Shown in pieces: positions 1 through 58,778 of a stretch of 63,782 nucleotides of DNA (positions are counted from its first letter, which is position 1; each line of letters starts with the position of its first letter). Made by a program: the position numbers and the translations under genes. Origin of the DNA: Stylophora pistillata. Taxonomy: Eukaryota. The stretch is from NCBI RefSeq assembly GCF_002571385.2, contig NW_019218399.1:42337-106118 (forward strand). The letters are read 5' to 3'. A model generated the notes under the pieces. The model worked only from the letters and a program-made list of their open reading frames with translations. It made no database searches and had not been told where the DNA came from.

Positions 1-652
1 CCATCTACACTTTTACTGGAGGTACTTTTGATTAAGAAACTAACTAAAGTCATTCATTGTTTTCAGTCTTGACCCTTTTGATAAAACTCAAGTCTTCAGT
101 GATTTCTTTCCGGGATTTCAAGTGTAAGGTGTTATTCCAGTATTCGAAGATTACTATGACCAAGTAATCCTTTTAATACATAAGCGCAGCTTGATTATAA
201 TGTTGGGGGATGTCAACTCGCTTAGCCAAATTAATCAGGACTTAATCATTGCTAGGACTCTGTACCGTTTTAATTCTCTTCCAAAGGAGTTGACCTCTAC
301 TACAGCGCGCGATGCCTCTTTTCTCTGCTCTAGCGAGAAGTACCCACGTATTCGAGTAGGAAAACACTCGGACATGTTTGGGTTAGCTGACCGTGCGAGT
401 TTCTATAGTGTATCCGTTCTTTTGCAAAAGGGGGGAAACTGGGTGGCCCTCACTGAGGTACTCGGCGAGCGCCAAGGAACCAATTAAACGCTAACAGTCG
501 AGCTGCGCACAAGAATCACGCACGCAGACGGGCACTTCAGTGTAGGTAAAACTCAAGGTCAGCTTTACCAACGCAAACACGACCACCTATGAAACTAATT
601 GTTTCCGATCAAAACAAGCGATTACAATGTCTAACACGGTAATAAGGAAATC

Positions 653-1319
653 NNNNNNNNNNNNNNNNNNNNNNNNNNNNNNNNNNNNNNNNNNNNNNNN
701 NNNNNNNNNNNNNNNNNNNNNNNNNNNNNNNNNNNNNNNNNNNNNNNNNNNNNNNNNNNNNNNNNNNNNNNNNNNNNNNNNNNNNNNNNNNNNNNNNNNN
801 NNNNNNNNNNNNNNNNNNNNNNNNNNNNNNNNNNNNNNNNNNNNNNNNNNNNNNNNNNNNNNNNNNNNNNNNNNNNNNNNNNNNNNNNNNNNNNNNNNNN
901 NNNNNNNNNNNNNNNNNNNNNNNNNNNNNNNNNNNNNNNNNNNNNNNNNNNNNNNNNNNNNNNNNNNNNNNNNNNNNNNNNNNNNNNNNNNNNNNNNNNN
1001 NNNNNNNNNNNNNNNNNNNNNNNNNNNNNNNNNNNNNNNNNNNNNNNNNNNNNNNNNNNNNNNNNNNNNNNNNNNNNNNNNNNNNNNNNNNNNNNNNNNN
1101 NNNNNNNNNNNNNNNNNNNNNNNNNNNNNNNNNNNNNNNNNNNNNNNNNNNNNNNNNNNNNNNNNNNNNNNNNNNNNNNNNNNNNNNNNNNNNNNNNNNN
1201 NNNNNNNNNNNNNNNNNNNNNNNNNNNNNNNNNNNNNNNNNNNNNNNNNNNNNNNNNNNNNNNNNNNNNNNNNNNNNNNNNNNNNNNNNNNNNNNNNNNN
1301 NNNNNNNNNNNNNNNNNNN
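653..1319. other. Assembly gap (run of N)
   Basis: Continuous N bases. Confidence 0.99.
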
Positions 1320-3924
1320 ATCCGCCTGTGCGTGTTAAACTGATTAATGATTAACGCAAAATGTCTACACTTTGAAATGGCAATGGTAGATCGAAGGCGG
1401 CCCGTGGGTTCCCTAACTGAAAACTACTTTCAACGTTCCATGCATGTGAGAAGGAAAAGAATATCTCAAAAAATGCCGATAATATCAGGGTAAGTGGTTC
1501 ATATTTCGTTCTTGCTGAATTCAGATTGGTATCTGGCGCTGGTGCTTTCTGCAAGCAGGCACTAAATAATTTATTTTGAGCACTCGCACAGTTTTAGTGT
1601 TTAGGTTGATGTGAAATATTAAGTGGATAGCACAAGCCCATGTAATTTTTCACGACATGTTCCAAAAGTGTGGTACCGTCATAGTCCTGAATGATTCAAA
1701 TCCTTTCCTAATACCCGAGTCCCGTTCAGGAGATAGTCGGTCCATCTCTTGTTCTAAAAGACTTTATAAATACAATAGAGACAACCTTTGGTCGACCTGA
1801 GGATCGTGCGGTCGGTTCGTCTCAGTTTCTCCACTGGGCGACTCGGCTAGATTTGGAAATTGCTCTGGTAACTGTTTTGTTTTATTTTTTTCTTGTCGTT
1901 TCTCATGCTTACGAATAAGTAGTGGGTATTCCTTTCTCGGGCGACAAGCTTATGTAAATATACATTCGGCCTACGCTGACCAACTACAACTTTTACGTAA
2001 ACCTGGACAAAGCTAAGAAGGTCAACGCAACGGATTCAACATCCTGGCGTATATTTTGTACTCGGAATGTTTAGCAGAATCATTCCTAAGAGATTTGTTC
2101 GTCTTTTTTACGGAGCCCTTATATCAATCTTTTGATACCGTTATATCACCATGAAGTTCATGAGGTTTGCGTCGGTCGAAATTACCGGCACTTTGTGCTT
2201 GAAAGGTACTCCAACCTCTTAGTTGACCAATTTCGTTATTATTCACGGCGTAAGGACAACATATTCTTTATTTCCTCGCTCAATCGCTCGTCAACAGGAA
2301 AATCAAGTATGCATTTCAATAGCTATATAAATCAAAACATTTTGCTAAAAGTGATGTTCAGCTCTACTGTATTTGTTTACTCGAGAGATGCGATCTCGAT
2401 ATCAGTATCTAAAAGGCAATGCGCTCGTGCTTGTTTGGAGAAGTAAAATTTGCATAAGTCAAGGAACGTCAATGCTGGCTTTCTAAAATATGGACACCCG
2501 CCTTTGTTGATGCCTCGTAGAGCGGTAGCCCATAAAAAAAACCCTCTGTCGATCGGCTCCTTTGAACCCCACGCTTTGGACGTGAGAAATATGTAAAAAA
2601 AAATGCCAAATAATTATCTGAAATAAAAATGAATTAGGAAACATCACGTCAAGTCAAAATAAGCTAAAACAGAAACCAGTAACCGCTCTATGTTTTGCTA
2701 AGTAAAAGTATGATTCACCTGATGGAGCTCAAGATCCGCCTGTGCGTGTTAAACTGATTAATGATTAACGCAAAATGTCTACACTTTGAAATGGCAATGG
2801 CAGATCGAAGGTGTCCCGTGGGTTCCCTAACTGAAAACTACTTTCAACGTTCCATGCATGTGAGAAGGAAAAGAATATCTTAAAAAATGCCGATAATATC
2901 AGGGTAAGTGGTTCATATTTCGTTCTTGCTGAATTCAGATTGGTATCTGGCGCTGGTGCTTTCTGCAAGCAGGCACTAAATAATTTATTTTGAGCACTCG
3001 CACAGTTTTAGTGTTTAGGTTGATGTGAAATATTAAGTGGATAGCACAAGCCCATGTAATTTTTCACGACATGTTCCAAAAGTGTGGTACCGTCATAGTC
3101 CTGAATGATTCAAATCCTTTCCTAATACCCGAGTCCCGTTCAGGAGATAGTCGGTCCATCTCTTGTTCTAAAAGACTTTATAAATACAATGGAGACAGCC
3201 TTTGGTCGACCTGAGGATCGTGCGGTGGGTTCGTCTCAGTTTCTCCACTGGGCGACTCGGCTAGATTTGGAAATTGCTCTGGTAACTGTTTTGTTTTATT
3301 TTTTTTTTGTCGTTTCTCATGCTTACGAATAAGTAGTTGGTATTCCTTTCTCGGGCGACAAGCTTATGTAAATATACATTCGGCCTACGCTGACCAACTA
3401 CAACTTTTACGTAAACCTGGACAAAGCTAAGAAGGTCAACGCAACGGATTCAACATCCTGGCGTATATTTTGTACTCGGAATGTTTAGCAGAATCATTCC
3501 TAAGAGATTTGTTCGTCTTTTTTACGGAGCCCTTATATCAATCTTTTGATACCGTTATATCACCATGAAGTTCATGAGGTTTGCGTCGGTCGATATTACC
3601 GGCACTTTGTGCTTGAAAGGTACTCCAACCTCTTAGTTGACCAATTTCGTTATTATTCACGGCGTAAGGACAACATATTCTTTATTTCCTCGCTCAATCG
3701 CTCGTCAACAGGAAAATCAAGTATGCATTTCAATAGCTATATAAATCAAAACATTTTGCTAAAAGTGATGTTCAGCTCTACTGTATTTGTTTACTCGAGA
3801 GATGCGATCTCGATATCAGTATCTAAAAGGCAATGCGCTCGTGCTTGTTTGGAGAAGTAAAATTTGCATAAGTCAAGGAACGTCAATGCTGGCTTTCTAA
3901 AATATGGACACCCGCCTTTGTTGA
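1320..3924. repeat. Direct duplication, period 1414 bp (1320-2510 and 2734-3924)
   Basis: Two 1191-bp copies at a constant offset of 1414, with about 10 substitutions seen by eye and no indels. The duplicated ORFs 1351/2765 and 2132/3546 confirm the offset. Confidence 0.95.
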
Positions 3925-9248: not shown

Positions 9249-9303
<55 letters not shown>

Positions 9304-9331
9304 GTGTGTGTGTTTGTGTGCGCGCGCGTGT
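9247..9331. repeat. (TG)n/(CG)n microsatellite
   Basis: Alternating purine-pyrimidine tract read directly. Confidence 0.95.
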
Positions 9332-10409: not shown

Positions 10410-13400
10410 ATGGCAGATATTCGAGATCCTAGTTGGTCTTTCAAAGCATACACAATCCCACGGAAAGAAAGAAGGCCTTCAGAAGGTATTATATTTTGTC
10501 GTACCCAAATTGAGAATTTTATTGAATTGATGATTGACATCGCTTTCCCGTGGGTTCTCCACCGTAGACAAAATATTTATCAGCTAATACTTCAGTATCT
10601 TACCTTAACATAAGGCCGGTCTCGTGAATGTGAAGAAAAGTAGGTTTACTGATTCGGTTTAACTTGACTGAGTAAAACTGAAATGTTGGTCTCCTATATT
10701 GAAGTTTTACTATTTTTTATATCTCTAAAATGACATCTTAAACATAGCTGTGTGATGTTTTGTTTTTCTAATGTTGTTGTAGTCAGTCACAAAACAGTAG
10801 AATCTGAAAATGTACGTGCTTGGCACCAAAAATAAATTCGAAATTAAATGCCAAGAAAATCTAACTTGTTATGGAATATGGTTGAAAGTGAAAATGTCAT
10901 TTAATTAAGTCTGGGAGAACTTGATATACGAGTTTCCTATTCCACTGTAGCTGAGCAGTTTCATATTTGAAGACAACACGAAAACCGTAACCCCTATAAA
11001 CCGACCGTTGAAACACTAAGGTGACTTAAATCCGTCTGCTTGTTGGTTTTTTTTTTGATAAAATAGTTATATTATTACACCATCTCATTTCTTATGAAAA
11101 CATTTAGATGGTCGGAATTTAGTTGGTACCTTTTCAAGTTTCTTTTTTTATTGATCTTTTATTTTGTAAGAATTCTGGATATTCTTGAAGAAAAAGCGCT
11201 GATTTAACGTTTACAGCTCATGAACATGTAGCTGACAACGTTTCGATAATGTCAATGTGATTCCAGTAATATTTAATTTGAATTCCGACCATTCACCCGG
11301 TGTACATTTCAATTTCTACCTCCACTGGCAAAATATCCAAATATTAAAAAACATCCATACAAACGAGGTATTTTCATGCGTGACTAACCAGTGAAGTTCC
11401 TAAATACTGAACTCCCTTTCATACAAACAAAAATTTCGAGCTAACTGGCTTGTTTTATCACCAAAGCATAATTTTAATCTCCATGACGTGGTTAAGTGAG
11501 GCATCGAACGCACGCTCATGAATACTTGTAATTGATTAAAAGTTTACTTAACGTCTCAATTTCTCTGAGGGCCCACCTGCAAAAGTCGTGACTTGTGGTA
11601 GATTAGAGCAACAATATGCTAAATAGATGTTAGTAGCGCTCACAGCTTTTCAACCCTGTCCTTACTTTAGATTAAAAAACAATTCCGTGTTTATGTAAAT
11701 TTACTCCAGAGAGAACCAGCGACAAATTATGTTTACTTTTCCAGATGAGGCCTGTCTCTGCAGAATTAGTGGGCCAATGAAATTTTTGCCGTTTAATTTG
11801 TTTTGTGTTTGCTAAGAAAGAAATGTGAATAAATGAATGAATAAATATTAAGAAAAAAGAAGCTTTCGACGGGTTTTCGACTTTGCAAAAAATCATGAGT
11901 TCTCAGTAAGCATTAGTAATTCTGCGCGCATGCTCTGTCTGTATAGGTAATCACATGATATTGAGGGAAATTTGAAACAAACAGATGCGAGTACTTTTTT
12001 CTCTTTTTTCAAATATCAACAAATTACTCCAACCCTTAGGGCGAGTGAATTCTTGAATGTTTGAAAAAATACGAGTGCTTGTTTACACCAAATTGCACGT
12101 GATTGACTTACAAGTGGAATATTAAGCAGAGGCAAAATTCACGAATCGCGTGTAAATGTTCTGTTACTTAAACCCTGCAAATGTCAATTAACGTTCGGTC
12201 AAAGCAACAGCGACAACTCAAAACAAAAACCACGTGAAGAATGTTTTGATTTCTTTGTTTTTAGAAGTTTTAAGCCACATAGAAGCTCTAAGTCCTGTTT
12301 AACAATTTATTACCTTTTTATGCACCAGCTTAATTTTTTCTGCTCTGTACGATCTCTTTAATTCTTTGTGCTGCTTGAAAACTGCATTTTTCTAAGCCGA
12401 TTAGAATGAAGGAATTAAGATTAGTTAGAGGGCCTTTCGATCAAGTGTCGTAAGCCAAATTGATAACGACAGCCAATCTTAGCATCTTACCAAGCCAATA
12501 AAAGGTCAGAGCTAAAAACAAAATAGCTTTATAACCAAACAAACTGTCTAGACAGTGATGAAGTCGTGGTTAGTTTTAATTCTCTTATTGATTTACGGAG
12601 AACTGAGTTTGGCCGAGTTATCTTGGAAAAAAGACAGAACGAAGTGAAGCAAAACCATTTCAATTCCGAATCGGTTCCAAAGTGAACTCAAGCTAATTTT
12701 GTTTCAGACTGTCAATACGTTTTACCAGTGAACTCCCGAGAGGCAAAAGAAATCGAACAAAGTATCAAGCGGCTAACATGGGACACTAACGACCTCGTCG
12801 ATCGAGTTGTCAGCATCTCTTACATAAAGAAGGTAGACAATCTAGTCTTAGAGCGAGAATATCATGAAAAAAGAGCGTCAATGCGGGACGAGGGAAGATT
12901 ACCCAAGGAGCTCTCGCAACAGTTAGCGTTCTGTGTTGAGACAGAAGATTGTCGTGTTAGGGATATTTGTCGGATAGGTTTGGTTTGCGATGGTGTCGAC
13001 CACACCCTTGGCGATGGATACATGGGTGTGACCGTGTGGAGGTGTCCGGACTTGTGTCTCAGAGCGTTTAGGTGGCCCACTTCTGGAACTGCGTACCTAA
13101 TGGTATTTAAGGTAGGTGTGTACATTACCATCTAAGGAGTAGGGCACGAAAATCCAGCAAAGATCTGATGTGCAGGAGTGAAAACAGAAATGGGAAACTA
13201 CCTTGTGCTCTTAAAGCACGTAAGGTCCATTAGGTCTTTTTGCTTCTTGCCAATTATTTCTCGCTAAAGGAGAACAAAAATGAAAGAGAAATGCTATGCA
13301 CGTTCTTTCTTCTCCAAACTGAACTCTTGGGTAATTTTGAAGGGTTCAGAAAATAGAGGACGTGAAAAAAAGTAGAATCTGAACTATTCAGCTAAACTTC

Positions 13401-16400
13401 AGTTAAACAAACTGATTATTTACGAGCCAATGGTCGATTCAGTTATCCTTTTTCCTCCACGATTTATCCAGACATATGTCAGTAGTTTGGCAAACATTGT
13501 TAAATGGAGAGGGGCAGTGACTGAAAACATGGTGACGGTGATCACATTACGTTAAAAAATAATAGTGATGATAACGAAGTTATGAGGATGACGAGATTTT
13601 TGGCGACGACATAGGTTAAGACTAGTGCATAGCTTCAAAACCAAGCCGCGACAACTTCATTTGTATTCGTTTTTTCGCCGCAAGAGTTCCCACAGATTGA
13701 ATTTTTGCAACTTGTTTCGCGCAAAAATACCATCGCCTCATAAGCACAAATATCTTCGAAACATTCTCTGTGTTCCACAAAGCGAATATTTGCTTTGAGT
13801 TTTCTTCCCGTCGTGTTGCTACAAGTGTAGTGACAACTACAAGCAATCGTGGTACTTGTGACTAAAATTAACCCTCTCATTTTATTTCACCTCAGATTGT
13901 AAAAGGCCGCGTGAAGTTCGTATCAGCAAAGTTATCTCCTGAAGGTCACACGTTAGAGCCCTCTCCGAACTATGACTGCCACGTGTCAAGAAACACAGCT
14001 TGTTCCTCTGTGACAGACTTGACCGCACTCATGCGAAGCACTCAGGTATTTTAGCCCTTACAAACCACCGCGATGAAGATTATATGATAATAAATGTTTG
14101 TGCAGATTACGGAAATAAGTTGAGTGCATGTTTAAGTATGTAGAACTGAGCGTTGCTTTAAGGATGTTAGTTAAGGAGAAACTCTCTGTGTCACCGTGGT
14201 ACTCTTCTAACTGCGTGATAAAGAAATCTGTATGACTGGGTATGTACACAAAAGCAGGGCACCATCACTTGCTTTTCTGTTACCTTCGTTATAAAATCGC
14301 GTTGAAGTTAACAACTCCGCCGAAATGGAGATTGAAGAATCCTCATTTAGTGTCGTCAGTAAACGTACTGTTTCGCTTTATTTCGATCCGTAATTAGTCT
14401 TGACAACTCCTGCTATCCTCTCGCGGTATTCGAAGCTAAAATTACGACATTGTCGCTCCTATACTCTCTCATGGCTCAAGAAGATCCCTTGACTTTGATT
14501 GCAGTCGTTACGTGCTCCTGGTATCATTTCTTTTGTTATCCTCATTATTCCTTAAGGTAACCTTGGTATTGGTTTCACGAAGCTCAATCGAAATATGCTT
14601 CCATGTCGATTATACCATTATATTTCTAGTATTACCTCTATGAATATGATGACGAAGGACTACCGTCGAAGCGCCCGCGACACTGCCTCCCGTTTGCCGT
14701 CATTGCTCTACACAGAAGCGAGGAAATGGCGAGCCTATTAAAATCACCTGTCTGTTTAGAGAATGTAGCTAGCGCTGTTAAAGATTCTACACTACCAATT
14801 GAGGTAGGGACGCTCAATTCCCATGTTAATTGTTCTTCAATAGTGGAGGTTTGAGGTTTGCGTTTTGAGTCCATTTATTTTTGTTTTTTTATTTTGCCTT
14901 TTCTGTATGCTTTTGTTTATTTATTTTATTACTGCCTTATGCTATCGATGTGTTTTCCAGGCTATTTATACTTGGTCGTCAAAGTGTTACATTCCATTTA
15001 AAAAATCGCTTTTGAAATCGGCCTTCCTACTAAAAATGTCCGTTTTTTCGTCATTTTCAAAGGCTCAGGAATAGTCCTTATACTTTCTCAAACTTCCTAT
15101 TTTTTAAGCTTAAATTAATGATAAACCCTTGCTCTTCAAAAACCTGCTCTTGGGCTCCTCGCTTATTGCTTTTAGCTATTGGGAAAGCGAGTTTTATCAA
15201 CGCTGCTTCGCTAGTGTCGGTCCTTTCTTCTCTTATTTTGGGCTTTTCAAGGCGCGCCGGGTTGCATTCAAATATCCCGCTTCAGTGATCATGAATAATT
15301 GATGATGTCCAGGCATTCTGCGCGATGCATTTTCTTTTTTTTTTCTTCTATTAACCTTATTAGGATTGCACTAGTAAATTTAATAGGTATTTGCGTAGAT
15401 TATGAACCGTAATTTTACACCATAGGATCTCACCCCGTTTTTTAATGAGGAAGACGGCATTCTTGCGTGGAGAGGCCTTGTAACATGTAAGGACAAAAAA
15501 CTAGGATGCGTATCACTGCTAGCGGGACATAAATTGGGAATCAACTTTTGGTGAGTGAGCCCTGTAGCCTTGAAAAATGATGAATTCTCTTAAGTTTTCT
15601 CCTTTTTTCCGTTTTGTTTTACCTTTTCTTGTTATTTTTTGTTGTTGTTGTTGTTGTTGTTTTTTTTTCGACGGAGTTTCCCTTTGACTCAACTTAAACG
15701 TCAGCTGGTGTTGTGAGCGCCCTCAAACATTTTCCTCGGTTTTCTCGTGATTTTCGCACTTCGGGGTTTGTTTAAATTCGGTTACTTTGCATTACTTAAA
15801 GAGCTTCCTTTTCCATCGCAGGAAATCGTATCTGGATGTCTCCACAAAAATTCTTTTTAAACAGTTAGGTGCGTTGCTGCCAGGGGACGTGAAAAGTGCA
15901 TGGAGATCGCCTCGTAAGTTTTCAAATTATTCAAATCTAGTTCTTAGTACCTAGCCTCTCTGGCGAAGGGTTTATCAAAGCTACATCACGGTATTTTAAT
16001 TCATCCTGTTTACCATCGTGGTATCTGAGTTCTATGGTCCTCGCTGCATAAGAATTAGTATCCTTAAAAATATGATTTGAGTGGAGAATTAAGTGTGGGG
16101 TGTATATGACATTAAGAAACACAACAACTTAAGGAAAGCCAAGCCGCGTTAAAAGACCACATTAGCACTTACTGTACATCGCACAAAGATGTCCAGCATT
16201 ATGCCAGCAGTTATGTGACCTTGGTCACACACAGCGCCGCATAGTGCAGTTTGTTTTGCTCCAGATCAATATATATTGGCTTAACCAGGTTTTTCCGGGG
16301 CAAAACACTGGCAACCCTTTACCTTTTGGTAGAATACATGTAAAATTAGATGAGTCTTCCTATCCTGATGTGGTGCATGATAAATAGAAAGGAAGCTGGG

Positions 16401-19400
16401 TGTAGGAGTTGTTTACTTCGATTCACGGTAATTAGGTTAAGCTATACCACCTACTACAATCCTATTTTGCTTTTTCTCCTTAAAATGTTAAAGATTTTCT
16501 TCTTACCAAAATGGGAAGTGTGGGCAAAAATAACCACATTTCACATTTTGATTTGAACAAAATCTTCATAGTTGATTACAGGAACTATGTGCTTAGTCTT
16601 TGCACGATGAGGGTGGCATCTAGGCAGCAAAGTGAAACATTCACCAGCTTTACAAGACACCTGGCCATTAAAGCCAAGGCGGTGAGTTTTTTGTCAGATA
16701 GAAGTAAAATTTAAGCGTTCAGAAAAGGGGCCACGGGAACTAACGTATATGCCATCTCAACCCAAAACTGAAAACATCGCCAATAAATATATGCGGTCAA
16801 GCGCTCACAATAAGTCAGCGGTCAACATAAAATTAGCTTACAAAATGGCGTCATATTTTACATTGGAACTGTATGGAAAGGACAGAAATCTCGAGAATAC
16901 AGACATGTAATAAACGCAGCTCATTTGCCTGACCAGTATGCCATTACATGAAACAATGTGGTCTCATTGTTTGAAAAAATCTGGTTGTAATTTTTACGTT
17001 ACACCTGTCCTTTCTACAACCCATAAAAACGAGGCTGAACCGCGCGTAATCCCTCGTGTTTCCTGAAAAATCCCTGAAACACCCAGTAATCACACACTCA
17101 TAACTAAGCGTTAGTTACATGTATTTCATTTGCCGGACCGGATCTACATAGTCTAATTATTTCCCATGTGTACACCGAAATATCAAGCGGAAAAAGAAAA
17201 GTTCACCTTTCTCTTTTTCCATCAAAAACCCTTGAAAGTAGCTCAGCTCCGCTTCCATCCTCCATCTGACGTGAACCCCTCCGCTGCGCGAGCGATGTGA
17301 ATCCTAAACTATTTTCTTATGCCTGAAAGATCAGGGAAGGTAAACATGTCTGGTACCAAAATTTGCCTTAAAAATTCATTTGTCGGATCCCGCAGTTTGG
17401 TTTGGAACGGATGCGAAGGAGTTCATTTGGCCAGCAGCTAAACCTTTCAACATTTTATTTCCGGTGAAATGTTGCGGAAAAATCTACTGAACAAGTGTAG
17501 CGTTTTGCAATTTTATTCATCACTTTCCGGAAAAATCAAATATAAATTGATTTGTTTTACCATCTTATTGGTTATGATTTGAAAGGGGTTTGTGATGTCA
17601 CATGTTCTTTATAAGTTGGATGTCGAGAAATTGAAGCGGTTAAACATAGTTCAGTTAGACTAGGTACGTACTAAGTCGCCGGAGTGAAAAAGCTCTCAGT
17701 TTGTGACATCAGCTTATCATTTGACAACGTCCTTCTTTTGCGCCTGGAAGAAAACAGATCCTATTTTACGATGATAACTTAGTCTCAGTTTTCTCCCAAC
17801 AGGCTGGCGTTTTGTGCATTGATCCTTCCACGACAATGTTCCTCGTTCCATCGGGAAAACTGGCTGTACGTCTTGGTAAGAGTTTCCTAGGAGTAAGATG
17901 TAAGCGTGTGATCTATTCTACACTTGGCCTATCTAAAACACTCCTATTACAATGCCAAGCGATTGCGTGACGACGCTTGTACACTGATTATGAAGCACTT
18001 CTATTTTCGTATCGATTCATTTATTTATTTGTTTGTTTATTAACTTCTCCACTACAAAGTATGGCAGGGGAACCGCAACAGAGGGTAGCCAATTACTGCG
18101 GGACCTGCGCAAGTTGTTTTTTCCATTGCTAACAGTAAACGCTCTCTTCATTGTAGGATTTTGCGCAGTAGCGGAGCCACTTAGGATGTTTTGCATCGTG
18201 TGCCGTCGTCAATCCCCGTTTCCACCATCCGTCTGTCCGCTCACTCCCCCAACAGTCAGCCGCTCCGCCCAGTCATCACCAAGTACTCCTGTTTGGCCTC
18301 CTGTCTCCATTTTAAGACCGGCATCTTTAGATTTTAACGTACGACACAAATCAAAAATTGTAGTATCCTCGCCGAGCAATAGTCTTAGACACTCGCATCC
18401 TCGTCACATCGCTAAGCGATCCTTGTCATTTTCACACAGTCCCGTTAGGAATGACAGCAAGAGTCTGCAACGAACGTCGAGGAGTGCCAGTTCTTCTGGT
18501 ACTGTCGCTTTTCAGGGAGACATCGCAATGGACTCCACAATGTCATCAGACTTTTCTAACGATAATGTCATGTCCACGACTGAAGAAGATTGTTTGAAGA
18601 ATCAATCGCGTATGCCAGATGCCGATTCAAAGGGGAATGAAATAAACTCAGCCAATTCTCTGAAAGGGCGCTCTTGTAATAGTCTAGACGTAGAGCATCT
18701 TGAGAGTAATCCAGAGTACTCAACGGTCTCGTGTGCATCCTTTGATACCGTGAAAAGCTCTAAGCCTAAGTTAGCTGTATTAAACCTTTCTCGTTTAAAG
18801 ACTTTGAGAAGGCTTCGTAATGTTTCGACGAATGCTCAAAATGGTAATTCAGAGTCAATAATCCAGTCAAACGGTTCGACAAATAGTAAATCCTCAAGAA
18901 CACCAAATGAACGGCCCCACACACCAACAACAAGTACAAATTTCTTTCCTTTTTGGCCTGACTCACCGCTGGTGTTATTTCCCGATCGGGAAAGGATTCC
19001 ATTTCTCTCTGATACACCTGTGAAAACAATTCAAGCCGAGGATACGAGAGAAGCGATTTCGGAGAGTCCTAGAGAGGATTTTAGAACCGATCTGTCAAAG
19101 CCAGGTGGTGAATCATTTAAAGCAGCATGAGGAGGTCAGACGCGAGGTGAAAAAGCTGATTCCAATTCGACAACTTCAGTGGAAAGGCCTTTTAATTCAT
19201 TGGAAGATGAATATCGTAATAGCTCAAGCTTTTGTGTGAAGAATTGGAACTTTAACTCGTCATACCTGAATGACAAAGCCATCTTGCACACCTTGAGCAA
19301 AGCAGCATCCCGAGAAGGATTCTTAAAACTCCAGAGATCAACGCACGTTGAAACCTCGGATTTCTGTAATATCGAGGCCTTCCCTCAGTTTGTCAACTTG

Positions 19401-22400
19401 GAAGATGTGAACGACTTGAAGAAAAGAGAAACCCGTGCAGAAATGCCGCATCCCCACGATGATAATCAGGCTATTCAGCCAACGGAAGTAGACCTCAGGT
19501 GCTCTTCTAATGAAGAGCCCACGGAGAATGCATGTAAAGGAACCAAGAGTACAGAGATCCCTCAGGTGCACGATGATCTTCATGCTATCAATGCAGATGT
19601 GCTCAAGTCTTCGCAGTTAGCACCTTACGATTCATCGTCAAGACAATCAAAGTACGTTGAGAATGCTGCTTATGGAAGCCCACTGCCTACTCAAAGCTTG
19701 AGATTACATAGAACTGTTAACGAACACGTGCCCAAAGCTTTCACAAGTTTTCTGAATCCAACTGGCGGAGCTGAGTGCACTTCAAAACTAATGATTACAT
19801 CGACCTCAAAGAAACCGTCGTCTAACATCGTTGGTCAAAGGAGCCTTTGCCAAAAATTCACCAGAAATGAGAATCGTAAAGCAACTGAGAAGCAGTGTTG
19901 TGTGTTTGCCACTGACTTGGAACAACTATGTACCACGGTAGACTCCGAGAAAGGCACCAGGCAAAGTTCAACTGAAGTATTAACTGAGGTAATGGATAGT
20001 TTTGATGGTTTTGATACTAGTTTGTTGACGGCAAGGGAAAAGGATGCTTGTTTGGATGGAGTCATTTGTTTTGAAAGTGGTAATCCGGGAAAACATGAAA
20101 TTCTCCAGATAAGTGGTAAACGCGAGGAGGAAGTAATGGTAAAGAATCCCAAAAACAGTGCTGGAACGAAATTTTGAAATAGGAAACGGCCATACCTTTG
20201 TTTACCACAGCGATATTCGAAAAATATTGTGAGCGAAAATCTTGAACTGAATTCCGACTCGCCGTTGAAATCTCCTAAACTGTCGGTGGTCCAGTGCAAA
20301 CAGCGGCAAAACTCCTTCACAGACACGCCTAACTATCTTGAAAATTACGATTTGGGTGTTGTCAAAGAGAGAGGAAGTCAATGTGCCTCGATGACTCTAT
20401 CGAGGTCTTCACCTCCTAACTGGACGGGAAAAGGTAATGAAGCGCCTAATGATGACGTAGGAATTGTAGTGTTAGAAGGTAACTCCTGCAGTAGAGGAAA
20501 GTGCGATGTTCAGCCTTTCAAAATGAATGAAAAGAGTGACTCTAAACCATCAGCCTTTAGATGCATGGTTAAAGAAAAGGTTGTAGATTTCCACGAAGAT
20601 ACGGGAGCACAACTAGGTGGTGTTATTGAAACATCTTTGCTTCATGACGGGGGATTACAAAAGGCTTCTAAAGGTCGGTCAAGTAATTTCAAAAAGGAAA
20701 GTTATTCCTCGCATGTTGAAGAAAATGGATGCGTTCGAGTTTGTGATGTAGATTCTGAACTTGACAAGCCGCATCACCCTACTGATATCTGGTCAGCGAT
20801 TGACACTGAATTTGCAGAACCAGTCACAGTAATTTGCTCACCACCGAGTTCGGTAGAAACGTTCACTATGAAATTTCCAGGAAACGTCGCTTCTGAAGAC
20901 GACTTAGCTGAAGAATTCACCAAGGAAATTAGAACTACAGAAGAAGAAACTCTACTATTGGAAAAAAGATTGCAAGGGGTGTTTAGTGAGCCGTTAGTCG
21001 TGAATTGCTCCCATGTTGATTCGGAAATAGTTGGGTCGCCAGGAGTTAGATGTCCAAACAAAGCAGCCAGTTCAAAAGGAAATTTAGCATTGTCCGGTTC
21101 TGGAAGTATGGAGGCTTTTAAGCAGGTGGTCCCAGTGGCCTCCGTTTCTGAAACGGCGGATGAGGAACTACAAACGGGTCAATTACCGGAAATTTTTGGA
21201 TCCTTTCCCGAGGCTTCTGAGATGTTTGTGGACTCGAGTCCGAAAGAACCCCACTTTACAGAGACTAATACGATACTTGGGCGATCAAACAAATGTTCAG
21301 AGCCAGCAGCGTCCCTGAGTATGAAACTGTCAAACGAAGAGATCGCAATCCAATCAAAGAAATCAAGGGTATCTAACAGTCTGGCATCACCACGACAGAG
21401 AAATAATGAATGGTTAGGAACTTCTCTTAAGGGAGTAAACTGTCCATTTAAGGACCTTCACACTAAGTCGTGTTCTTTGATTAAAGCCGTAGACAACACT
21501 ACATCCCAGACTACTGAGGGTCGTTGTAACGAGGTAAAGGTTAAGTTTGCGACAGAAACACAGCCATCAAGGAAGCGAAGGCAGGAGGCACAGGGAGGAA
21601 GAGAAATGAAAACTAAAAGTCGACAAGGAAAATTTGTATGTATAGCTCAATGGAAAGGGAAAGAGGAAGTTGAAACAGAAAATTGCCAAGATAAATCAAC
21701 ATGTTCAGCACGTTCTCAGGGAGATGACACACCTCATAGAAACGACTTAGCTTCTCAAGGAACAGTCAATTGTATTAGTAACCTGCCTTGCTTTAGGGAA
21801 TTCGAAGGGCAAAGAAAAGAACAACAAACTGACGACTCGATTAAGCGATTGCCATCCAAGCAAGCGCAGAACAGTTGGATACACGCAACGAATGCAGACG
21901 AAAGAGTGGATTTGATACATGGAGGGAATGCATGCGTAACATTAATACACAAGGCCAGGATAGAAGCGAAAAACACGGCAGATGAGGGGAAGAAGAAATC
22001 TGTAACCTTTGTTTCAACTCCGATCAAGAAAAGACGGGATCAAGATTTGATTAAGGAAAAAAGGGAACAAAGATCAAATTTTAACTGTTCATCATGTCAC
22101 CTACACGCGAAAAAAGAGAGGCTTCCTGTAAACTTAGAAGATAAATTACGGTCAAGCAAGAATGAGTCACCTAAGGCTAAAGTGGTAATAGGGCAAAAAC
22201 CAGTGACCCCTAACCGTATGCAACAAGAAGCGTCCCCGAAGAACCCAATCGCAAATGACCTGAAGAACTCACCTTTGAGTGATAACAAACAGCTAACATA
22301 TACTTTAGATACAGTAAAAACATGTGGATTTAATAGTCCAAAAACAGGGAGAAGTGGCAGCCAGACCGTACCCAGTGGAGAAAAGAGCGCCTCAAACCCC

Positions 22401-23225
22401 GTAGGAACAAGAGATATCAGTTTGAAGTCTGCTGAGCGGAATGCTTTTACGGCGAAGCATCTAAAACAGGATAAGATCACTAAGCCTACAGAATTATTGA
22501 ATTCTACCTTAAGTCACCTGAACTTCTCAAAAAAGCTTGAAATCATTGTGCAACTTGATACGAACAAGGATTGTTGTTCTGACAAAAGACGTAACAAGGA
22601 TCTCCATGGTAGGATTGAGTCCTTAGGAGACATCAACGATGTGGACAGAGATATTCTCGCCTACAACAGGACAATAACTGGGAAGAAGAAAATCGTACCG
22701 GAGTTAGAAAAGGCCTCCAAACAAAGGAAATCGAGCCGCAGACCACCATTAAGTTACATTGGAGGATGCCAGGATCTTGAATCAAAAGCTCCCGATAAGG
22801 TTTTTGTACCAATCTTCTCGGAAGACAATCGTCTAATCGGACATTACACCGAAAGAAGTCATCGCGACCATAACCGAGACCTGGATAAAAATGATGCTCT
22901 TATGAATCATGCTGACCATGCGTACCCTTATCCACGTAGGGTTCCACCAATACAACCTGTACATTCCTCCTTCCAAAACAGGGAGATCAAAGTTCTGCCT
23001 CAATTTATGCCAGACGCGTCGAACCAGTACCCACAGAGAGGCATTACAAACCCGACCAGATTTCAATTTGTTTACCCCAGATTTCCAAACTATAGTAGAC
23101 CTGCGTTTGTTCGTGGTATGTACCAGGCGCACCCCTTGTTATCTCCAGCTCCTACATTATCAGGCCCCTGGTCGTCCCCAGGAAATGCGTATCAAGTACG
23201 TAACACCCCGATTCGTCCAAGATGA
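10410..23225 (+). CDS. TASOR: TASOR/TEX15-family protein (DUF3715 pseudo-PARP + SPOC-like domain + long disordered tail); 9 coding exons; last exon carries two in-frame TGA
   Basis: Exons 10410-10485, 12708-13111, 13896-14045, 14630-14803, 15426-15550, 15822-15913, 16572-16681, 17803-17875, 18157-19130 (frame continues to 23225); all GT-AG with compatible phases. DUF3715 motifs: YTIPRK, NLVLEREYHEKRASMRDEGRLPKELS, LGDGYMGV, VFKIVKGRVK, EPSPNYDCHVS, TQYYLYEY, RPRHCLPFAVI. SPOC-like: LAWRGLV...LDVSTKI...FTRHLAIKAKAAGVL...MFLVPS. 725 aa to the first stop, about 2090 codons to the last. Confidence 0.85.
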
Positions 23226-24643: not shown

Positions 24644-24757
24644 ACTGTTAAGTATGTATGATGCGCGATCCTCGCAGTAGATAGCGCTATCTATGCAATA
24701 GCGAAAAATCAGACCTGAAAAAAATATATGAACTTCATATATTCATTGTAACTGTTA
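24644..24757. mobile_element. Short SINE-like insertion, same family as 57820-57969
   Basis: gatcctcgcagta...gcaatagcgaaa...atatatgaacttcatatattca, flanked by ACTGTTA direct repeats (24644-24650, 24751-24757). Confidence 0.5.
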
Positions 24758-24790
24758 GGTATACAAGGTAGCACTCATAGTGCACTTCTA

Positions 24791-25664
24791 TCACAATATA
24801 ATTTGGATATATCAACAAAGTTGAAGTGGTAAATTGGCCACCGCAACGATTACAAAAGCTGACGTTTCGAGCGTTAGCCCTTCGTCGGAGCGAATAGAGG
24901 AATTGTGGGTTGTGTGTGCTTTTAAAGGCAGAAAATGGAGCTACGTTATTGGTGGGAACATGGCAACGAGAAAAACAAGAATAAATTAGTGGAATGAAAA
25001 GCGTTCGTTGATCCCTGTGGGATTTAGACTGCCGGTTTGAAAGATGAGCTTTTGTTCAAGATTTTTACGGCTTTCCGTGCTACCTAAGTGTAAGGAAAGA
25101 CCGCAGATTGCCATATGTTGCTTAGAATGATTAGGTAAATTAAAATGTCTAGCGACTGGTTTCGATGTGTCCTTGTCATTCCTTTCCACGTCTCGAAGGT
25201 GTTCTCGGAATCGGTCACCTAGTCTTCTGCCTTTTTCGCCGATGCATATCTTTTTTTTACCTAATCATTCTAAGCAACAAATGGCAATCTGCGGTCTTTC
25301 CTTACACTTAGGTAGCACGGAAAGCCGTAAAAATCTTGAACAAAAGCTCATCTTTCAAACCGGCAGTCTAAATCCTACAGGGATCAACGAACGCTTTTCA
25401 TTCCACTAATTTATTCTTGTTTTTCTCGTTGCCATGTTTCCAATAACGTAGCTCCATTCTCTGCCTTTAAAAGCACACAAAACCCACAATTCCTCTATTC
25501 GCTTCGACGAAGGGAAAACGCTCGAAACGTCAGCTTTTGTAGTCGTTACGGTGGCCAATTTACCACTTCAACTTTGTTGATATATCCAAATTATTTCGTT
25601 ACTCCCACCGACGCGGCCCCAAACAGTCTCTCGAAACTATCAGCCTTTATTCTTTCACAATATA
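24791..25664. mobile_element. Penelope-like retroelement remnant, fold-back (inverted) GIY-YIG C-terminus + pLTR
   Basis: Inverted arms 24798-25139 and 25256-25594. Minus strand encodes CIGEKGRRLGDRFREHLRDVERNDKDTSKPVARHFN...EQKLIFQTGSLNPTGINERFSF, the PLE GIY-YIG end. TCACAATATA direct repeats at 24791-24800 and 25655-25664. Confidence 0.9.
24858..24890 (-). ncRNA. Minimal hammerhead ribozyme motif of a PLE pLTR
   Basis: Minus strand CCGACGA-AGGGC-UAAC-GCUC-GAAAC-GUC matches the PLE-type core, with a U4-to-C variant. A mutated + strand copy is at 25503-25534. Confidence 0.6.
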
Positions 25665-52174: not shown

Positions 52175-55100
52175 ATGCCTTCAGAATTGGTAAGGAGATT
52201 TTTTACAGAGATTAGCTTTATGAAGCTTTTCCATCATTCTTCGTTTTAGACATACTATTATAGCTAGGCAAAGTTTACTTCCAATGAATAACGTCGCGTT
52301 GCTTTGCTTTTATCCATAGTCGATATCAAAGCTTTATCGCGCACATTTAAGCCAACTGTTCCACTTTTACCTCATTCTATGGTTGCCAATCGTGATCAGC
52401 AGTAAGATTCTTGGTGATAAATGCGTCACTTCCATTCAAAGTTTTAGTCTCTTGAAACAAGCATACAAAGTTTTCAGGGTGCGGGATATGTTTTCCTGTT
52501 ACTACCTCTGCAAAGGAGATGAGATCTGTCAGAGCATAAACTTCAACAAAGTCAGCAGCTTTTGCGAGATGAACAACCGAACACGTTTGGTCAGACCGTA
52601 CCATTTCGTGCCGAATTCAAACATCATTTACTTGGAAAACCCATTTCGAGGTAATTTAAATTGATTTTTAACTCAGAGTATTTTTTTTGTCTTAAACTCC
52701 TCTCAAAAGAAAAGCAAAGCGGCCGGTTTTTTTTTTTTTTTTCATTTTTTTAATGTATCTGCTTTTAAGTTTACCAGGTTATTAAGTTCCCTGTCACAGG
52801 ATGTTTTCGCAGCTGAATAAGAACTCCTTTCAGTTGAACGCACCCTTAATAATAGGCATCGAGGAGTAAAACATTTTTTTCGTCCATCAAAGTTCATGTT
52901 TTTTTATCTAAAAGGTGCTCACTGTTCTGTTTTTATTCCGTACGATGTTCCATTTCAATTTTTGGAAACTTTTAGGACTCAATATAATGCATAATTTCCC
53001 ACCGTAAATGGCAAATGGTAAACATTAAAACTAAACAGAAATAAACATTTTCCAATTTTGATCCGTAATGTTTAAGTTGAATGTTAATGTATATGTGTGT
53101 GTGTGTGTTTTTTTTTTCAAACCTTTCCCATCGCTGCAATATGGTTTTTAGTTTATTTCGGCTTGAGAAAGGAGGACCTCTCTTTCATGACCGACACTCA
53201 TTTCCACGCGACCTTTTTCAACTAAGACCGTCATTCGCTTTCTCAATAAAACGATCTGAATAAATACAGATTCTTCCAATAACAGCTGGGTTCAAATAAG
53301 TGGCTAAACGTATCATCTACAAAGCTCATGAAAGAGGGATCTCATATATCCAAATTTAAACTGACTGGTTCTCGTACGAAATATATCGTCTTTTGGAAAA
53401 ACTTCTGTCTTTTGCCTGAGAAAGAGGATACCCTGTTAATCTATTCCTAAATAAATAAGATGCCTGACATTATTTTTCGACTCTAAAGTAACTGAATATA
53501 AATCATGTTACCATCACCTTTAGAATTTTGGATACAATACTATCATTGACAGAAACGTGTTTATGTATAAGTAATCGAAGGGAGCTGAGTAAAATTAAGA
53601 ATTTATACCACGCGTGTCCGAAGAAGTTTTTTTTTTACCTGCTAAAGAGCATTCGCTATCGATAAATCATGATGCTTTTCGAAAAAATTAAGCCTCTTTC
53701 AATATTCTCATTTTCAAGTCATTTTGCCATTAGCAATTACCAAATTTGATGAAAAATGCCCTCTGTTTTAGCCAGTAAGCATGTAGTAACTTTGCCCCCT
53801 ATTTATAAAAATAAAGGAAAGCCAGCCCATTCCCTGAATTGCGAGTATTTTAACGGAAAAGTATGCTGCAGAAACTAAATAACTTTTCTCTTCAACATCA
53901 CAAAATTCACAGATGAAGTTATGACACTAAATAGATAACTCTCACCAAGGTAGGATTTCCAACCAGATCCGAATTGGCTTTCTGCGTGGATCTAACAGAT
54001 CGATTTCCAAATTGGATTTTTTAGTAGAATTTACGAGTAATTCGATTTTGGTTTGGATTCGGACTGAGAATTGAAATAAAAGCTCAGCGGTTTTCAACAT
54101 CGTCTTCTTAACATTGAAACAGTTGAAAAATGAGATAAGATAATCAAGTGTTAGCTTCGAGTGTCCTTCTTATGAAAATGAATTGTAATTTATCATATAA
54201 CCGGCCATGGTTCAATTACTTTACAGCTTTCCTTGGTTCGTCACCAGCACTCCCAGTTTCATCATGCCAAGAGATTAAAAACGCCTCCGAAGGACTGGCC
54301 CCTAATGGTAGATATTGGCTAGCCTCGATAGGAGCTGGAGACCAACCTTTCAGCGCTTATTGCGATATGGATAGAGAAGGTTAGATCTACTGAAGACAAT
54401 GTATGAACTTGGGGATCTTGAAAGTACTACAAAATTACTTATGTTAAACATTGATTGACGGGCTACATTGTGTCCACGAATCAGTTGACTGTTGTTGAGT
54501 AGGGGAGGGAGGGGTAAGTGCGTAGTTGCTCAGATACCGATATCGATCCCATAATTCATTGCAGTTTGCGTTGGTTTCTGTAGCGTGAACCCGCAAGGAG
54601 CTGTCTATCACATTTAAGTTAGTTTCTCTCTTTTAAGGGAGTTTAGTGAATAAATCAGAATAAAATCAAAATCAGAATAAGTTGTTTTCTCTAATAAAGA
54701 AACACAAACCAATCTTCTTTCGTGAACCTTTGCTGATTTAGTCATTTTCTTTCCAGTGATTGTAGAGTGTCCTAAGAACCTATGCCAGAATGGAGCAGAG
54801 TGTGACTTCTACGGGAGGGGTCAGTACAAGTGTCGATGCTTACCAGGGTATACTGGGAAGCATTGTGAAATTGGTAAGTTGTTTTCTTTACGATTGTTCA
54901 CACAAGTATGAATCTGATGATATAACTTACTCGGTCAGCACTTATTTAAGCTGAGAGCAAATGCACAGAAGAACTACTTTGTTTTTGACAACACAGACAA
55001 ATAATTGTCAACTTAAATCATAAGTTTTTTTTTTTCCGGACAAAACTCAAAAGCAGTAATTTCTTTTTCCGCATCGCTCTTCTGTCACTCGCAATTCTTT

Positions 55101-56664
55101 GCTAAAAACAGAACTACAATTTATCCCTGTTATTCGTCGAGTTGATAGCGATTATCAATTTGCTAAAAATTGCAATTCTCAAAGTAAAATATGAGGTTGT
55201 AAGGGTTTGAATAAGCTTACGCCCAACCAACTGTCACAATTTGTATATTCCCTAGAATGGTCACCTCTTTAATTAAAATCTAACAATTTCCCCGGGATTA
55301 ACGGAAGAAAGTGGAAAGCAGCACTTTGTTAATAATCTTCAAGTTAGCAAACCAATGTTCACGAAAAGTAATTTTTATATTTTTTTATAAATTGTGCATA
55401 ACCAATCTTAGATCAATGTAGAATACTACTGAAGAAATGGTTTGTCAAACAGCTGCTTTTGAAGCTTTTCTTTTGTCATTGGAGATCAATGTAGTATACT
55501 ACTAAAGAAATGGTTTGTCAAACAGCTGCTTTTGGTGCTTTTTTTTTTGTCATTGGAGATCAATGTAGTATACTACTGAAGAAATGGTTTGTCAAACAGC
55601 TGCTTTTGATGCTTTTATTTTGTCATTGGAGATCAATGTAGTATACTACTAAAGAAATGGTTTGTCAAACAGCTGCTTTTGATGATTTTTCTTTTTTTGT
55701 CATTGGACGCAGATATTGATGAATGCTCCAGTAATCCGTGTGTGAATGGAGGTACATGTATCAATTTGGTAAATGGTTACAATTGCTCCTGCACGTCATC
55801 ATTGACTGGCAAACATTGTGAACTCGGCATGGGTAAGTTGATGCTTTCAACTTTCCGTCTACATTGTAGGAATCCAGTATTATGCTGCGCTATCGACGAT
55901 TTTAAAATGTGAGGAGTTGAAGGGGGGCTGTGCTAAGATCCCTCCTCTTTCATTTTTCCCTGCTCCTCTCTCCTTTCTCCCATGCCTCGGTAGAGACAGT
56001 TGCTCTCGCTAAATACGCCACTAATCCATAGGGTGCCACCCACCTTCTCTTCCCTTCTGTGTTATGTTTATTTCGCAGAGGGAAAGTTGTTCTCCTTTTC
56101 AAGTCGATGAAAAGGTAAAAAAAGAAATAATTGCCGTACAATTTTAGGGGAAGATGGCAAATTACCCCTTCTAGAAGCTTTCCACACACAAAAAAAAACC
56201 TTATCTGTAAAATGTGCGCATAAAAAGACCGTGAAGTTGCGAGCAATATCGATTAAGCAGCAGGATTATGGGGAAAGAAATTGCTTTACTTTGCAGGGGC
56301 AGAGTGCAGCTCGTACTTATTCGACACAGAAGAAGACCGTAGCATAAAGTATCGAGCTGCAGGGTCAAAAAAATGTGACAGTGCCTTTTCCGGAGGCTGG
56401 TACCGCTTTAACAGCACTGCTGGCTCAAAAATGCCTACATCTTGTGTGCCAAAGAGTATGTGTAACACAGACGCACCCGGCTGGCTCAGTGGGAATCACC
56501 CCACACTAAAGGAAGGAATTGTCACTCGCACTGCTTGTTTTCATTGGAGCACTAATTGCTGCAACTGGAAGGTTATCATCAATGTGAGGAACTGCGGAGA
56601 ATTTTTCGTTTACAAGCTTGTGAAACCAAACGTATGCACTCTTCGTTATTGCGTAACCACGTGA
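52175..56664 (+). CDS. Secreted mosaic protein: PAN/apple + FReD/COLFI-like N-subdomain + EGF + Ca-binding EGF + UMOD/GP2/OIT3-like D8C, about 367 aa
   Basis: Exons 52175-52189 (start tentative), 52320-52650, 54227-54379, 54757-54873, 55713-55832, 56297-56664. Hydrophobic [15 protein letters not shown]; CYYLC...CQSINF...CEMNN (PAN); SCQEIK...NGRYWL...YCDM; CQNGAEC; [16 protein letters not shown]; GWYRF...MPTSC...CNTDAPGWL...CFHW...CC...VRNCG.FFVYKL...RYC (D8C). Confidence 0.85.
55411..55707. repeat. Minisatellite, 4 copies of a 73-74 bp unit
   Basis: gatcaatgtag...gtcattgga units start at 55411, 55484, 55558 and 55631. Confidence 0.95.
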
Positions 56665-58660: not shown

Positions 58661-58778
58661 GCTGTCCTTCGTCGTAACCTGGAAACTAGCCCGGCCACCC
58701 ATGCGTATTAGGGAGAAAGACGAAAAAAAGGCGGAAATCTTAAAATTTGTTGCAAATTTCTAGACGGATTGAGTTCTT

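Follow-up and report, generated by a model that had tools for sequence, protein, structure and literature searches.

TEX15, which executes piRNA-directed silencing in vertebrates, has been called vertebrate-specific (PMC10578480; PMC7618676), and a coral locus raises the question of whether its lineage is older. The locus, LOC111343173 of Stylophora pistillata (gene A below), lies in a window of 63,782 nucleotides, which is the whole stretch of DNA analysed and to which all positions refer. A sequence-only reading had described there a hybrid TASOR/TEX15 architecture and a possible TEX15-lineage silencing factor predating vertebrates. On balance, we favour the following answer: gene A is a DUF3715 and SPOC gene outside the TASOR clade, likely duplicated from a TASOR-like gene before the coral-bilaterian split, on a branch likely leading to TEX15, and its product would be a non-catalytic nuclear silencing adaptor.

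Exon structure of gene A and its in-frame stops

The spliced model of gene A comprises nine exons, 6,273 nt and 2,090 codons. Its frame is kept from the ATG at 10410 to the TGA at 23225, with AG/GT at all junctions, and the exons of RefSeq XP_022806058/59 are identical to those of the model. An acceptor for exon 7 at 16582 was discarded, as it breaks the frame that 16572 keeps. The features are as follows.

10410..10485, + strand: exon 1, coding part, aa 1-25, followed by a phase-1 intron that is the same in coral TASOR; relatives match aa 3-25
12708..13111, + strand: exon 2, aa 26-160, start of the DUF3715 pseudo-PARP (PF12509 E 3e-9)
13896..14045, + strand: exon 3, aa 161-210, pseudo-PARP
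14630..14803, + strand: exon 4, aa 211-268; the pseudo-PARP ends at about 14707 and a linker follows
15426..15550, + strand: exon 5, aa 269-310; SPOC starts at about 15462
15822..15913, + strand: exon 6, SPOC domain
16572..16681, + strand: exon 7, SPOC domain
17803..17875, + strand: exon 8, SPOC domain
18157..23225, + strand: exon 9, 1,689 codons; SPOC closes with a strand that ends at about 18210, and the giant stretch after it is predicted to be disordered, with short blocks of conservation; a single open frame in relatives
19128..19130, + strand: premature TGA, codon 726, end of the RefSeq protein; a sense residue in 15/15 aligned relatives
20175..20177, + strand: second premature TGA, codon 1075, directly before a conserved basic motif; a sense residue in 14/15 relatives, a gap in 1/15
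22923..23225, + strand: P/R/Y/F-rich tail, kept across stony corals

Exon 9 contains 2 stops; 1,688 random codons would be expected to contain about 101, and the other two frames contain 92 and 157, so a chance open frame is excluded. The sequence-only reading had overlooked both TGA codons in this exon, the first of which limits the product encoded by this assembly to 725 aa. Gene A orthologues in other stony corals are open; orthologues also occur as spliced contigs (L014 and P0002). With the orthologues open, it is probable that the reference copy either contains an assembly error or is a null or truncated allele of recent origin, in which both folded domains are still encoded. A search with the last 1,015 codons for an intact allele of the same species gave none among 7,979 scored candidates, but it carries no weight, as it also missed P0015, which it should have found; nor does the assembly contain another haplotype of the stop region. 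Selenocysteine insertion or readthrough at the TGAs is unsupported, since none of the relatives has Cys at the aligned positions.

Less probable, yet to be taken seriously, is that S. pistillata makes a full product of about 2,060-2,090 aa, the stops being consensus errors or lying inside real 72-nt introns. The GenBank model PFX15740 bypasses both of them through 72-nt gaps, and downstream of the stops there is neither frameshift nor decay, conserved positions being kept at 180 of 295 versus 184 in the closest relative. However, both bypassed stretches have a gapless alignment with coding sequence in relatives, and the second contains the conserved basic motif; the RefSeq protein stops at the first TGA, and the three-member protein cluster of gene A holds no intact S. 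pistillata protein. The two annotations are affected by the stops: the protein is cut short in RefSeq, and in GenBank the stops are spanned by doubtful introns.

Domains of gene A and the TASOR gene of the same genome

The N-terminal part of gene A is a DUF3715 pseudo-PARP devoid of catalytic motifs, as first described: PF12509 matches the spliced protein with E 3e-27, and the AlphaFold model superposes on the TASOR pseudo-PARP 6TL1 (Foldseek E 2e-20; Z 26.4, rmsd 2.3, 200 residues aligned). In the alignment, the NAD-site positions, a degenerate H-Y-E triad, read C-T-Q where TASOR has L-Y-Q (PMC7955679, Table 1). The SPOC-like domain that follows was likewise recognised correctly and is confirmed by its fold (Z 14.2 with FPA, 13.6 with PHF3, 13.2 with SHARP, 12.0 with SPOCD1 and 11.8 with Chp1); the Pfam SPOC profile finds no match in the protein at E<=0.01. 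ESM Atlas also lists SPOC for gene A, at 0.89, which we treat as a lead only.

Beyond SPOC, we could detect no alpha/beta, PIN or TEX15 domain, either with Pfam or with our own HMMs at E<=50, which agrees with the earlier impression that folded C-terminal domains, PIN-like ones included, are missing from gene A. No DomI fold is predicted after SPOC; the vertebrate DomI HMM matched only vertebrate-type rows and missed Nematostella and all other invertebrate TASORs checked. In the segments that were folded, pLDDT is mostly below 50 over aa 435-725 and below 50 at 1,015 of 1,015 residues of aa 1076-2090. The roughly 1650 codons first described as low-complexity do form one giant exon predicted to be disordered (77% FoldIndex<0). 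They are not of low complexity: it is 3.4-4.0 bits per 50 aa, versus 3.5-4.0 in the first 450 residues. The P/Y/R-rich tail was rightly noticed, with 19 P, 11 R, 7 Y and 6 F in the last 100 residues.

Gene A is not the only DUF3715 gene of this coral, as a PF12509 genome search yielded 2 loci among 4 candidates. The second, gene B on contig C5, is the separate PIN-containing TASOR that the sequence-only reading had proposed to look for. Our HMMs find in it both the alpha/beta (E 2e-16) and PIN (E 7e-24) domains, and this part shares 47% identity with its counterpart in Nematostella TASOR, whose domains Pfam confirms; gene B is the canonical TASOR. Searched in six frames, the genome gave no match to PIN_TASOR or TEX15, and the controls gave none either; as the PIN search missed even the real PIN of gene B, these results show no absence. 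A search for Periphilin_C gave 3 sub-cutoff matches among 8 candidates, in seemingly repeated DNA.

The comparison of the two coral genes removes two supposed signs of TEX15. The motifs PSPNYDCH and PRHCLPFA of gene A are present in gene B at 6/8 and 7/8 positions, and the first in Nematostella TASOR at 7/8, so they are ancestral states. A giant disordered exon is no better a sign, gene B having two giant exons, one of about 1,400 codons and another of about 1,100. Six intron positions and phases are common to both genes, which makes gene A a TASOR duplicate shortened by loss of the C-terminal domains rather than a hybrid; its exon 2 lacks three introns present there in coral TASOR.

Placement of gene A among DUF3715 proteins

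The DUF3715 tree was computed with IQ-TREE under the C20 site-heterogeneous model from 68 domains and 211 columns, unrooted and with no outgroup; the underlying set consists of the best 150 of 264 matches ranked by likeness to gene A, and 21 of the 68 tree rows bear a species name. It splits (100/100) into 29 TASOR-type rows, among which gene B groups with Nematostella and bilaterian TASORs, and 39 rows with gene A, including 11 TEX15-domain proteins and SPOC-less invertebrate proteins. Whether placed at the midpoint or by MAD, the root comes to lie on the branch between the TASOR and TEX15 sides, the MAD margin being small (0.158 vs 0.166). Gene A does not nest within the TASOR clade: its grouping with cnidarian TASORs is rejected (AU p=0.017), as is that with bilaterian TASORs (p=0.002). 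The TEX15 profile of DUF3715 is preferred over the TASOR one by gene A (155 vs 122 bits, +33) and not by gene B (175 vs 202, -27), although in absolute terms gene A scores lower with it than gene B (155 < 175).

The idea of a TEX15-lineage factor predating vertebrates thus stands as regards the side of the tree and the preferred profile, and fails as one-to-one orthology: gene A as sister to vertebrate TEX15 is not the best tree, if not rejected either (p=0.13). With SPOC kept and a grouping with TEX15, gene A probably represents an intermediate stage of a TEX15 branch that predates vertebrates. The genomic neighbourhood adds no clear synteny signal: two neighbours are IRF1/2-type genes, and the others have no obvious fit to the linkage group of TEX15 (human 8p12). 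The IRF1/2-type pair presumably fits the 4q/5q/8p/10q paralogon.

In the best tree, gene A is joined not with TEX15 but with two SPOC-bearing proteins, amphioxus P0039 and Owenia P0089 (88/86, not starred); the DUF3715-SPOC form outside the TASOR clade also occurs in amphioxus and an annelid. Given this grouping, gene A may belong to a third ancient lineage and stand as out-paralogue to TASOR and TEX15 alike, the SPOC-less TEX15 lineage having split earlier and been lost, or not found, in corals. We hold this to be unlikely. At the second NAD-site position, gene A and P0039 have the same unusual five-residue motif, and amphioxus possesses non-TASOR genes with as well as without SPOC. Nevertheless, making gene A pro-orthologous to all non-TASOR bilaterian genes costs just 3.3 log units (p=0.41), a third lineage requires one extra duplication and one extra loss, and the PF12509 genome search found no DUF3715 locus beyond the two described.

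Gene A could also, whatever its ancestry, encode a short TASOR that acts as an alternative HUSH-like scaffold in somatic cells, with DomII and PIN dispensable for reporter silencing. It shares DUF3715, SPOC and the six intron positions with TASOR, and TASOR without DomII and PIN still silences, according to PMC7532188. This explanation appears doubtful, more so than the previous one: DomI, required for MPP8 binding (PMC7618375), is not seen in gene A and nothing folds after SPOC, with the proviso that the vertebrate DomI HMM misses the invertebrate TASORs checked as well. Finally, a cnidarian-specific, fast-evolving TASOR duplicate drawn to TEX15 by long-branch attraction is suggested by the shortness of DUF3715, the long branches and an architecture that is a subset of TASOR's, but is largely rejected and very improbable, given the AU tests under a site-heterogeneous model and a separate domain, SPOC, whose own tree joins the coral genes with P0039 (98/91) and P0089 (94/89).

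Proposed order of domain losses and comparison with known systems

We return to gene A as an intermediate of the TEX15 branch. The ancestor would have had the architecture DUF3715-SPOC-disordered-DomII-PIN. TASOR and S. pombe Chp1 have SPOC-DomII-PIN in common (PMC7532188), hence the loss in gene A is a derived state. On its branch DomII and PIN would have disappeared first, a state kept in coral, amphioxus and Owenia; SPOC would then have been lost in a bilaterian copy (molluscs, echinoderms, hemichordates, amphioxus), and the TEX15 domains gained in vertebrates. A gene of the TEX15 side that has SPOC but no PIN, and that coexists with a true TASOR in the same coral, would thus indicate in which order domains were lost between TASOR and TEX15.

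By analogy with TASOR and TEX15, we infer a silencing function for gene A, whose pseudo-PARP would bind nascent transcripts or a chromatin partner. The SPOC domain may dock a partner peptide, and the long disordered exon may provide nuclear localisation and short binding motifs that recruit heterochromatin or DNA-methylation effectors to active transposons. The protein would probably act outside the MPP8-type HUSH core, probably in germline or stem cells. More tentatively, the last common ancestor of coral and human may already have possessed TASOR and a SPOC-bearing proto-TEX15, of which gene A and its amphioxus and annelid counterparts could be the living intermediate, in PIWI- or nascent-RNA-guided transcriptional silencing; if true, part of the core of the nuclear piRNA pathway ascribed to vertebrates dates back to the first eumetazoans. 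The DUF3715 of TEX15 can substitute for TASOR's in LINE1 silencing, as stated in PMC10578480. With the existing assay, in which domains are exchanged in TASOR of Tasor-null ESCs, and with cnidarian models, two questions become testable: whether the ability of the TEX15 branch to silence is older than vertebrates, and whether cnidarians possess a nuclear silencing arm apart from HUSH.

TASOR binds MPP8 and periphilin. Gene A resembles the HUSH scaffold TASOR/TASOR2 (PF12509, PF23314, PF24630; PDB 6TL1) in its N-terminal pseudo-PARP, the SPOC behind it and a long disordered exon, together with the introns shared with coral TASOR. It differs by the missing alpha/beta (DomII) and PIN domains and unseen DomI, by the additional loss of the remaining NAD-site tyrosine, and by a DUF3715 that falls outside the TASOR clade. 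With TEX15 (PF12509 and PF15326) it shares the side of the tree, the preferred profile, a giant disordered region and, as a weak likeness, a proline/aromatic-rich tail found in many TEX15 proteins. Vertebrate TEX15, a nuclear germline protein associated with PIWI and required for the methylation of transposons, has one or two TEX15 domains. Gene A lacks the TEX15 domains and bears a SPOC, which is shown by 0 of the 24 rows in which the TEX15 HMM finds its domain. S. pombe Chp1 (RITS; PDB 3TIX) has a similar SPOC fold; unlike gene A, it carries DomII, PIN and a chromodomain but lacks a pseudo-PARP.

The closest published description concerns cnidarian 'Truncated Tex15 homologs', whose DUF3715 a profile comparison attributes to TEX15 in 21 of the 28 cnidarians (bioRxiv 10.64898/2026.09.07.749791). 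S. pistillata is absent from the seven cnidarians listed there without a Tex15 homologue, and gene A is probably among these homologues. The text of the preprint describes DUF3715 only, with 0 occurrences of SPOC and no DUF3715 tree in its passages, whereas gene A has a SPOC. In the DUF3715/TEX15/TASOR literature we found no description of a SPOC-bearing paralogue on the TEX15 side; Fig. 2 and the supplement of Schopp 2023 and the tables of the preprint may include such sequences. The early DUF3715 split and a cnidarian DUF3715-only 'Tex15' are already in print, and what gene A adds is its SPOC, the tests on the tree and the two premature stops.

The nine-exon gene and its predicted folds

The coding model of gene A (Stylophora pistillata LOC111343173) has nine exons with canonical splice sites, keeps its frame and comprises 2,090 codons.

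Exons of gene A in the spliced model (window positions)
10410-10485, 12708-13111, 13896-14045, + strand, exons 1-3
14630-14803, 15426-15550, 15822-15913, + strand, exons 4-6
16572-16681, 17803-17875, 18157-23225, + strand, exons 7-9

The probable end of a 5' non-coding exon is near 9652; a (GT)n microsatellite occupies 9250-9330, ~1.1 kb before the ATG. The RefSeq protein XP_022806058 is 100% identical over exon 2 and agrees with the model through codon 725, where it ends.

The gene A protein matches PF12509 with an E-value of 3e-27. Folding covered the RefSeq protein (to codon 725) and codons 1076-2090. With a 55-row alignment, AlphaFold2 predicts residues 41-257 and 293-432 mostly at pLDDT >90, and the remainder of the RefSeq protein mostly at <50. 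The first predicted domain corresponds to the TASOR pseudo-PARP (Z 26.4, rmsd 2.3, 200 aligned), the second to the SPOC domains of FPA, PHF3, SHARP, RBM15, SPOCD1 and Chp1 (Z 11.8-14.2). Across the final 1,015 residues, for which 24 coral relatives were included in the alignment, no position reaches pLDDT 50. Conservation over 15 relatives is restricted to short blocks, basic NLS-like motifs are present, and none of the domains that follow SPOC in TASOR (DomI, the alpha/beta DomII and PIN) is visible in gene A.

At the start of the window (646-1338, 1351-2446, 2765-3860), an assembly gap precedes a nearly exact ~1.4-kb tandem duplication that may be a haplotype artefact. A short repeat at 24735-25750, in two near-identical inverted copies, carries an open frame with no match in Pfam, which we take to resemble a retroelement endonuclease; similar text occurs in the introns of gene B, the second DUF3715 gene of this genome. 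Further along the + strand lie a tandem IRF pair (30946-31350 and 45378-45824), whose DNA-binding domains are nearest IRF1/IRF2 among solved structures (the first clearly, the second less so), exons with EGF and uromodulin-like D8C domains (54139-56664), and a transposon-like element with HTH and rva_4 integrase core spread over several frames (58773-60717). Downstream on the same contig are an intronless bZIP_2 gene (L023:8569-9384), a C2H2 gene with a weak ZNF512 match (L027:7046-7357) and a DUF4549 gene (L027:9282-9476).

A canonical TASOR in the same genome and the descent of gene A

The PF12509 search of the genome gave two loci out of four candidates, the second being gene B.

G000:C5 1003200-1036002, - strand, gene B (loci L003-L006)

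Gene B has two giant exons and encodes DUF3715, SPOC, alpha/beta and PIN. It is collinear with LOC5509427 of Nematostella, in which Pfam or our own HMMs confirmed all four domains. Gene B lies between a head-to-head ASB-type ankyrin gene, with ASB9/ASB11 as best short natural matches, and an adjoining dystroglycan gene; in human, ASB13 neighbours TASOR2, and DAG1 lies on 3p like TASOR. Elsewhere, in repeated DNA (L030-L032; G000:C658, C67), a short exon-like stretch occurs three times and scores just below the cutoff for Periphilin_C.

Six introns are common to genes A and B: the first, the one preceding the final DUF3715 strand pair, and four within SPOC (phases 2, 1, 0, 1). These shared positions mark gene A as a duplicate of a TASOR-built gene rather than a fusion.

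For the phylogeny, the best 150 of 264 library matches were joined by 26 long matches and cluster members. Leaving out 11 short fragments and 19 isoform or near-duplicate rows gave 144 full domains for FastTree, 68 of which (21 with a species name) were analysed in IQ-TREE under LG+C20. In this tree without outgroup, one 100/100 branch divides the rows in two. The TASOR-type side has 29 rows, among them gene B and Nematostella. The 39 rows on the other side are gene A together with Oculina and Montipora, 11 proteins that carry TEX15 domains, and proteins without SPOC from molluscs, a crinoid, a hemichordate and amphioxus. TASOR versus TEX15 profile scores parallel the split. Grouping gene A with cnidarian (AU p=0.017) or bilaterian TASORs (p=0.002) is rejected.

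That the duplication predates the cnidarian-bilaterian split is a well-supported and highly probable conclusion. Midpoint and MAD both root the outgroup-free tree on the TASOR branch, by a thin margin. Descent of TEX15 from the ancestor of gene A is the more economical reading, and one we moderately favour; a third lineage is a less likely alternative. In AU tests, gene A is rejected neither as exclusive sister of TEX15 (p=0.13) nor as pro-orthologue of every non-TASOR bilaterian row (p=0.41). In the best tree, gene A joins two other DUF3715+SPOC proteins, XP_019635360 of amphioxus and CAH1795320 of Owenia (88/86). The SPOC tree recovers the same grouping (98/91 and 94/89), as expected under either reading because TEX15 lacks SPOC.

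Non-TASOR DUF3715 genes are of at least three kinds in amphioxus and at least two in the crinoid Antedon (library proteins P0016, P0020, P0039, P0048, P0052, P0045, P0046); these sets are invertebrate expansions of the TEX15-side domain.

The sequence-only reading had proposed a possible TEX15-lineage factor, partly from two motifs. Over 24 TEX15 and 42 TASOR rows, both are indeed nearer TEX15 on average (5.7 vs 4.9 and 6.2 vs 5.2 of 8), yet gene B agrees with them at 6/8 and 7/8. Vertebrate TASOR is the derived state here, and the motifs therefore carry no signal. The proline/aromatic tail does resemble many TEX15 proteins, but one TASOR row ends R/G/Y-rich, making the tail a weak sign of kinship.

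Two in-frame stops in the last exon

The giant exon holds two in-frame TGA codons (726 and 1075), which the sequence-only reading had not mentioned. The GenBank model PFX15740 (2,063 aa) equals ours minus codons 719-742 and 1063-1086; since these stretches align to relatives without gaps, the two introns of 72 nt that it places there are probably artefacts of gene prediction.

In Montipora (1,789 and 1,800 aa), Oculina (2,260 aa) and Desmophyllum, the orthologous frame is open. The close relative P0015 represents a cluster of 420, in which 12 of 15 listed members have 1,748-1,782 aa. It aligns over the entire last exon, with 60% of residues identical and a sense residue at each stop position. 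Its identity to gene A falls from 70% ahead of the first stop to 58% between the two and is 65% beyond the second; conserved downstream positions are retained at 180/295 in gene A versus 184/295 in P0015. While 4.8% of single-base changes create a stop, the ~4 kb after the first TGA hold one more stop and no frameshift, so that loss of the full-length frame, if the stops are real, would be very recent. Assembly error, a segregating null and a fixed truncation all could account for them. A product cut at the first stop, which sits in the last exon, retains both folded domains.

Putative role beside TASOR and TEX15

Gene A is real and ancient, a DUF3715+SPOC gene that is not a TASOR and falls on the TEX15 side. 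The copy in this assembly is broken or truncated. Its most likely role would be that of a non-enzymatic adaptor at nascent transposon transcripts, outside the MPP8 core, with SPOC as a putative docking fold and gene B as the presumed provider of the HUSH-type scaffold; we hold a silencing role to be an evenly balanced proposition.

The passages seen of PMC7618676 and PMC7619638 repeat a vertebrate origin of TEX15 or do not address invertebrates. MPP8 binding depends on DomI more than on SPOC (PMC7618375); TEX15 is nuclear, MIWI2-associated and required for transposon methylation (PMC7385494); its DUF3715 can stand in for that of TASOR (PMC10578480); and the TASOR pseudo-PARP has no NAD site, binds ssRNA weakly and is needed for silencing (PMC7532188). 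At the degenerate H-Y-E positions (residues tabulated in PMC7955679), TASOR's Leu, Tyr and Gln correspond to Cys, Thr and Gln in gene A; even the tyrosine kept by TASOR and TEX15, described as dispensable in TASOR (PMC7532188), is therefore lost.
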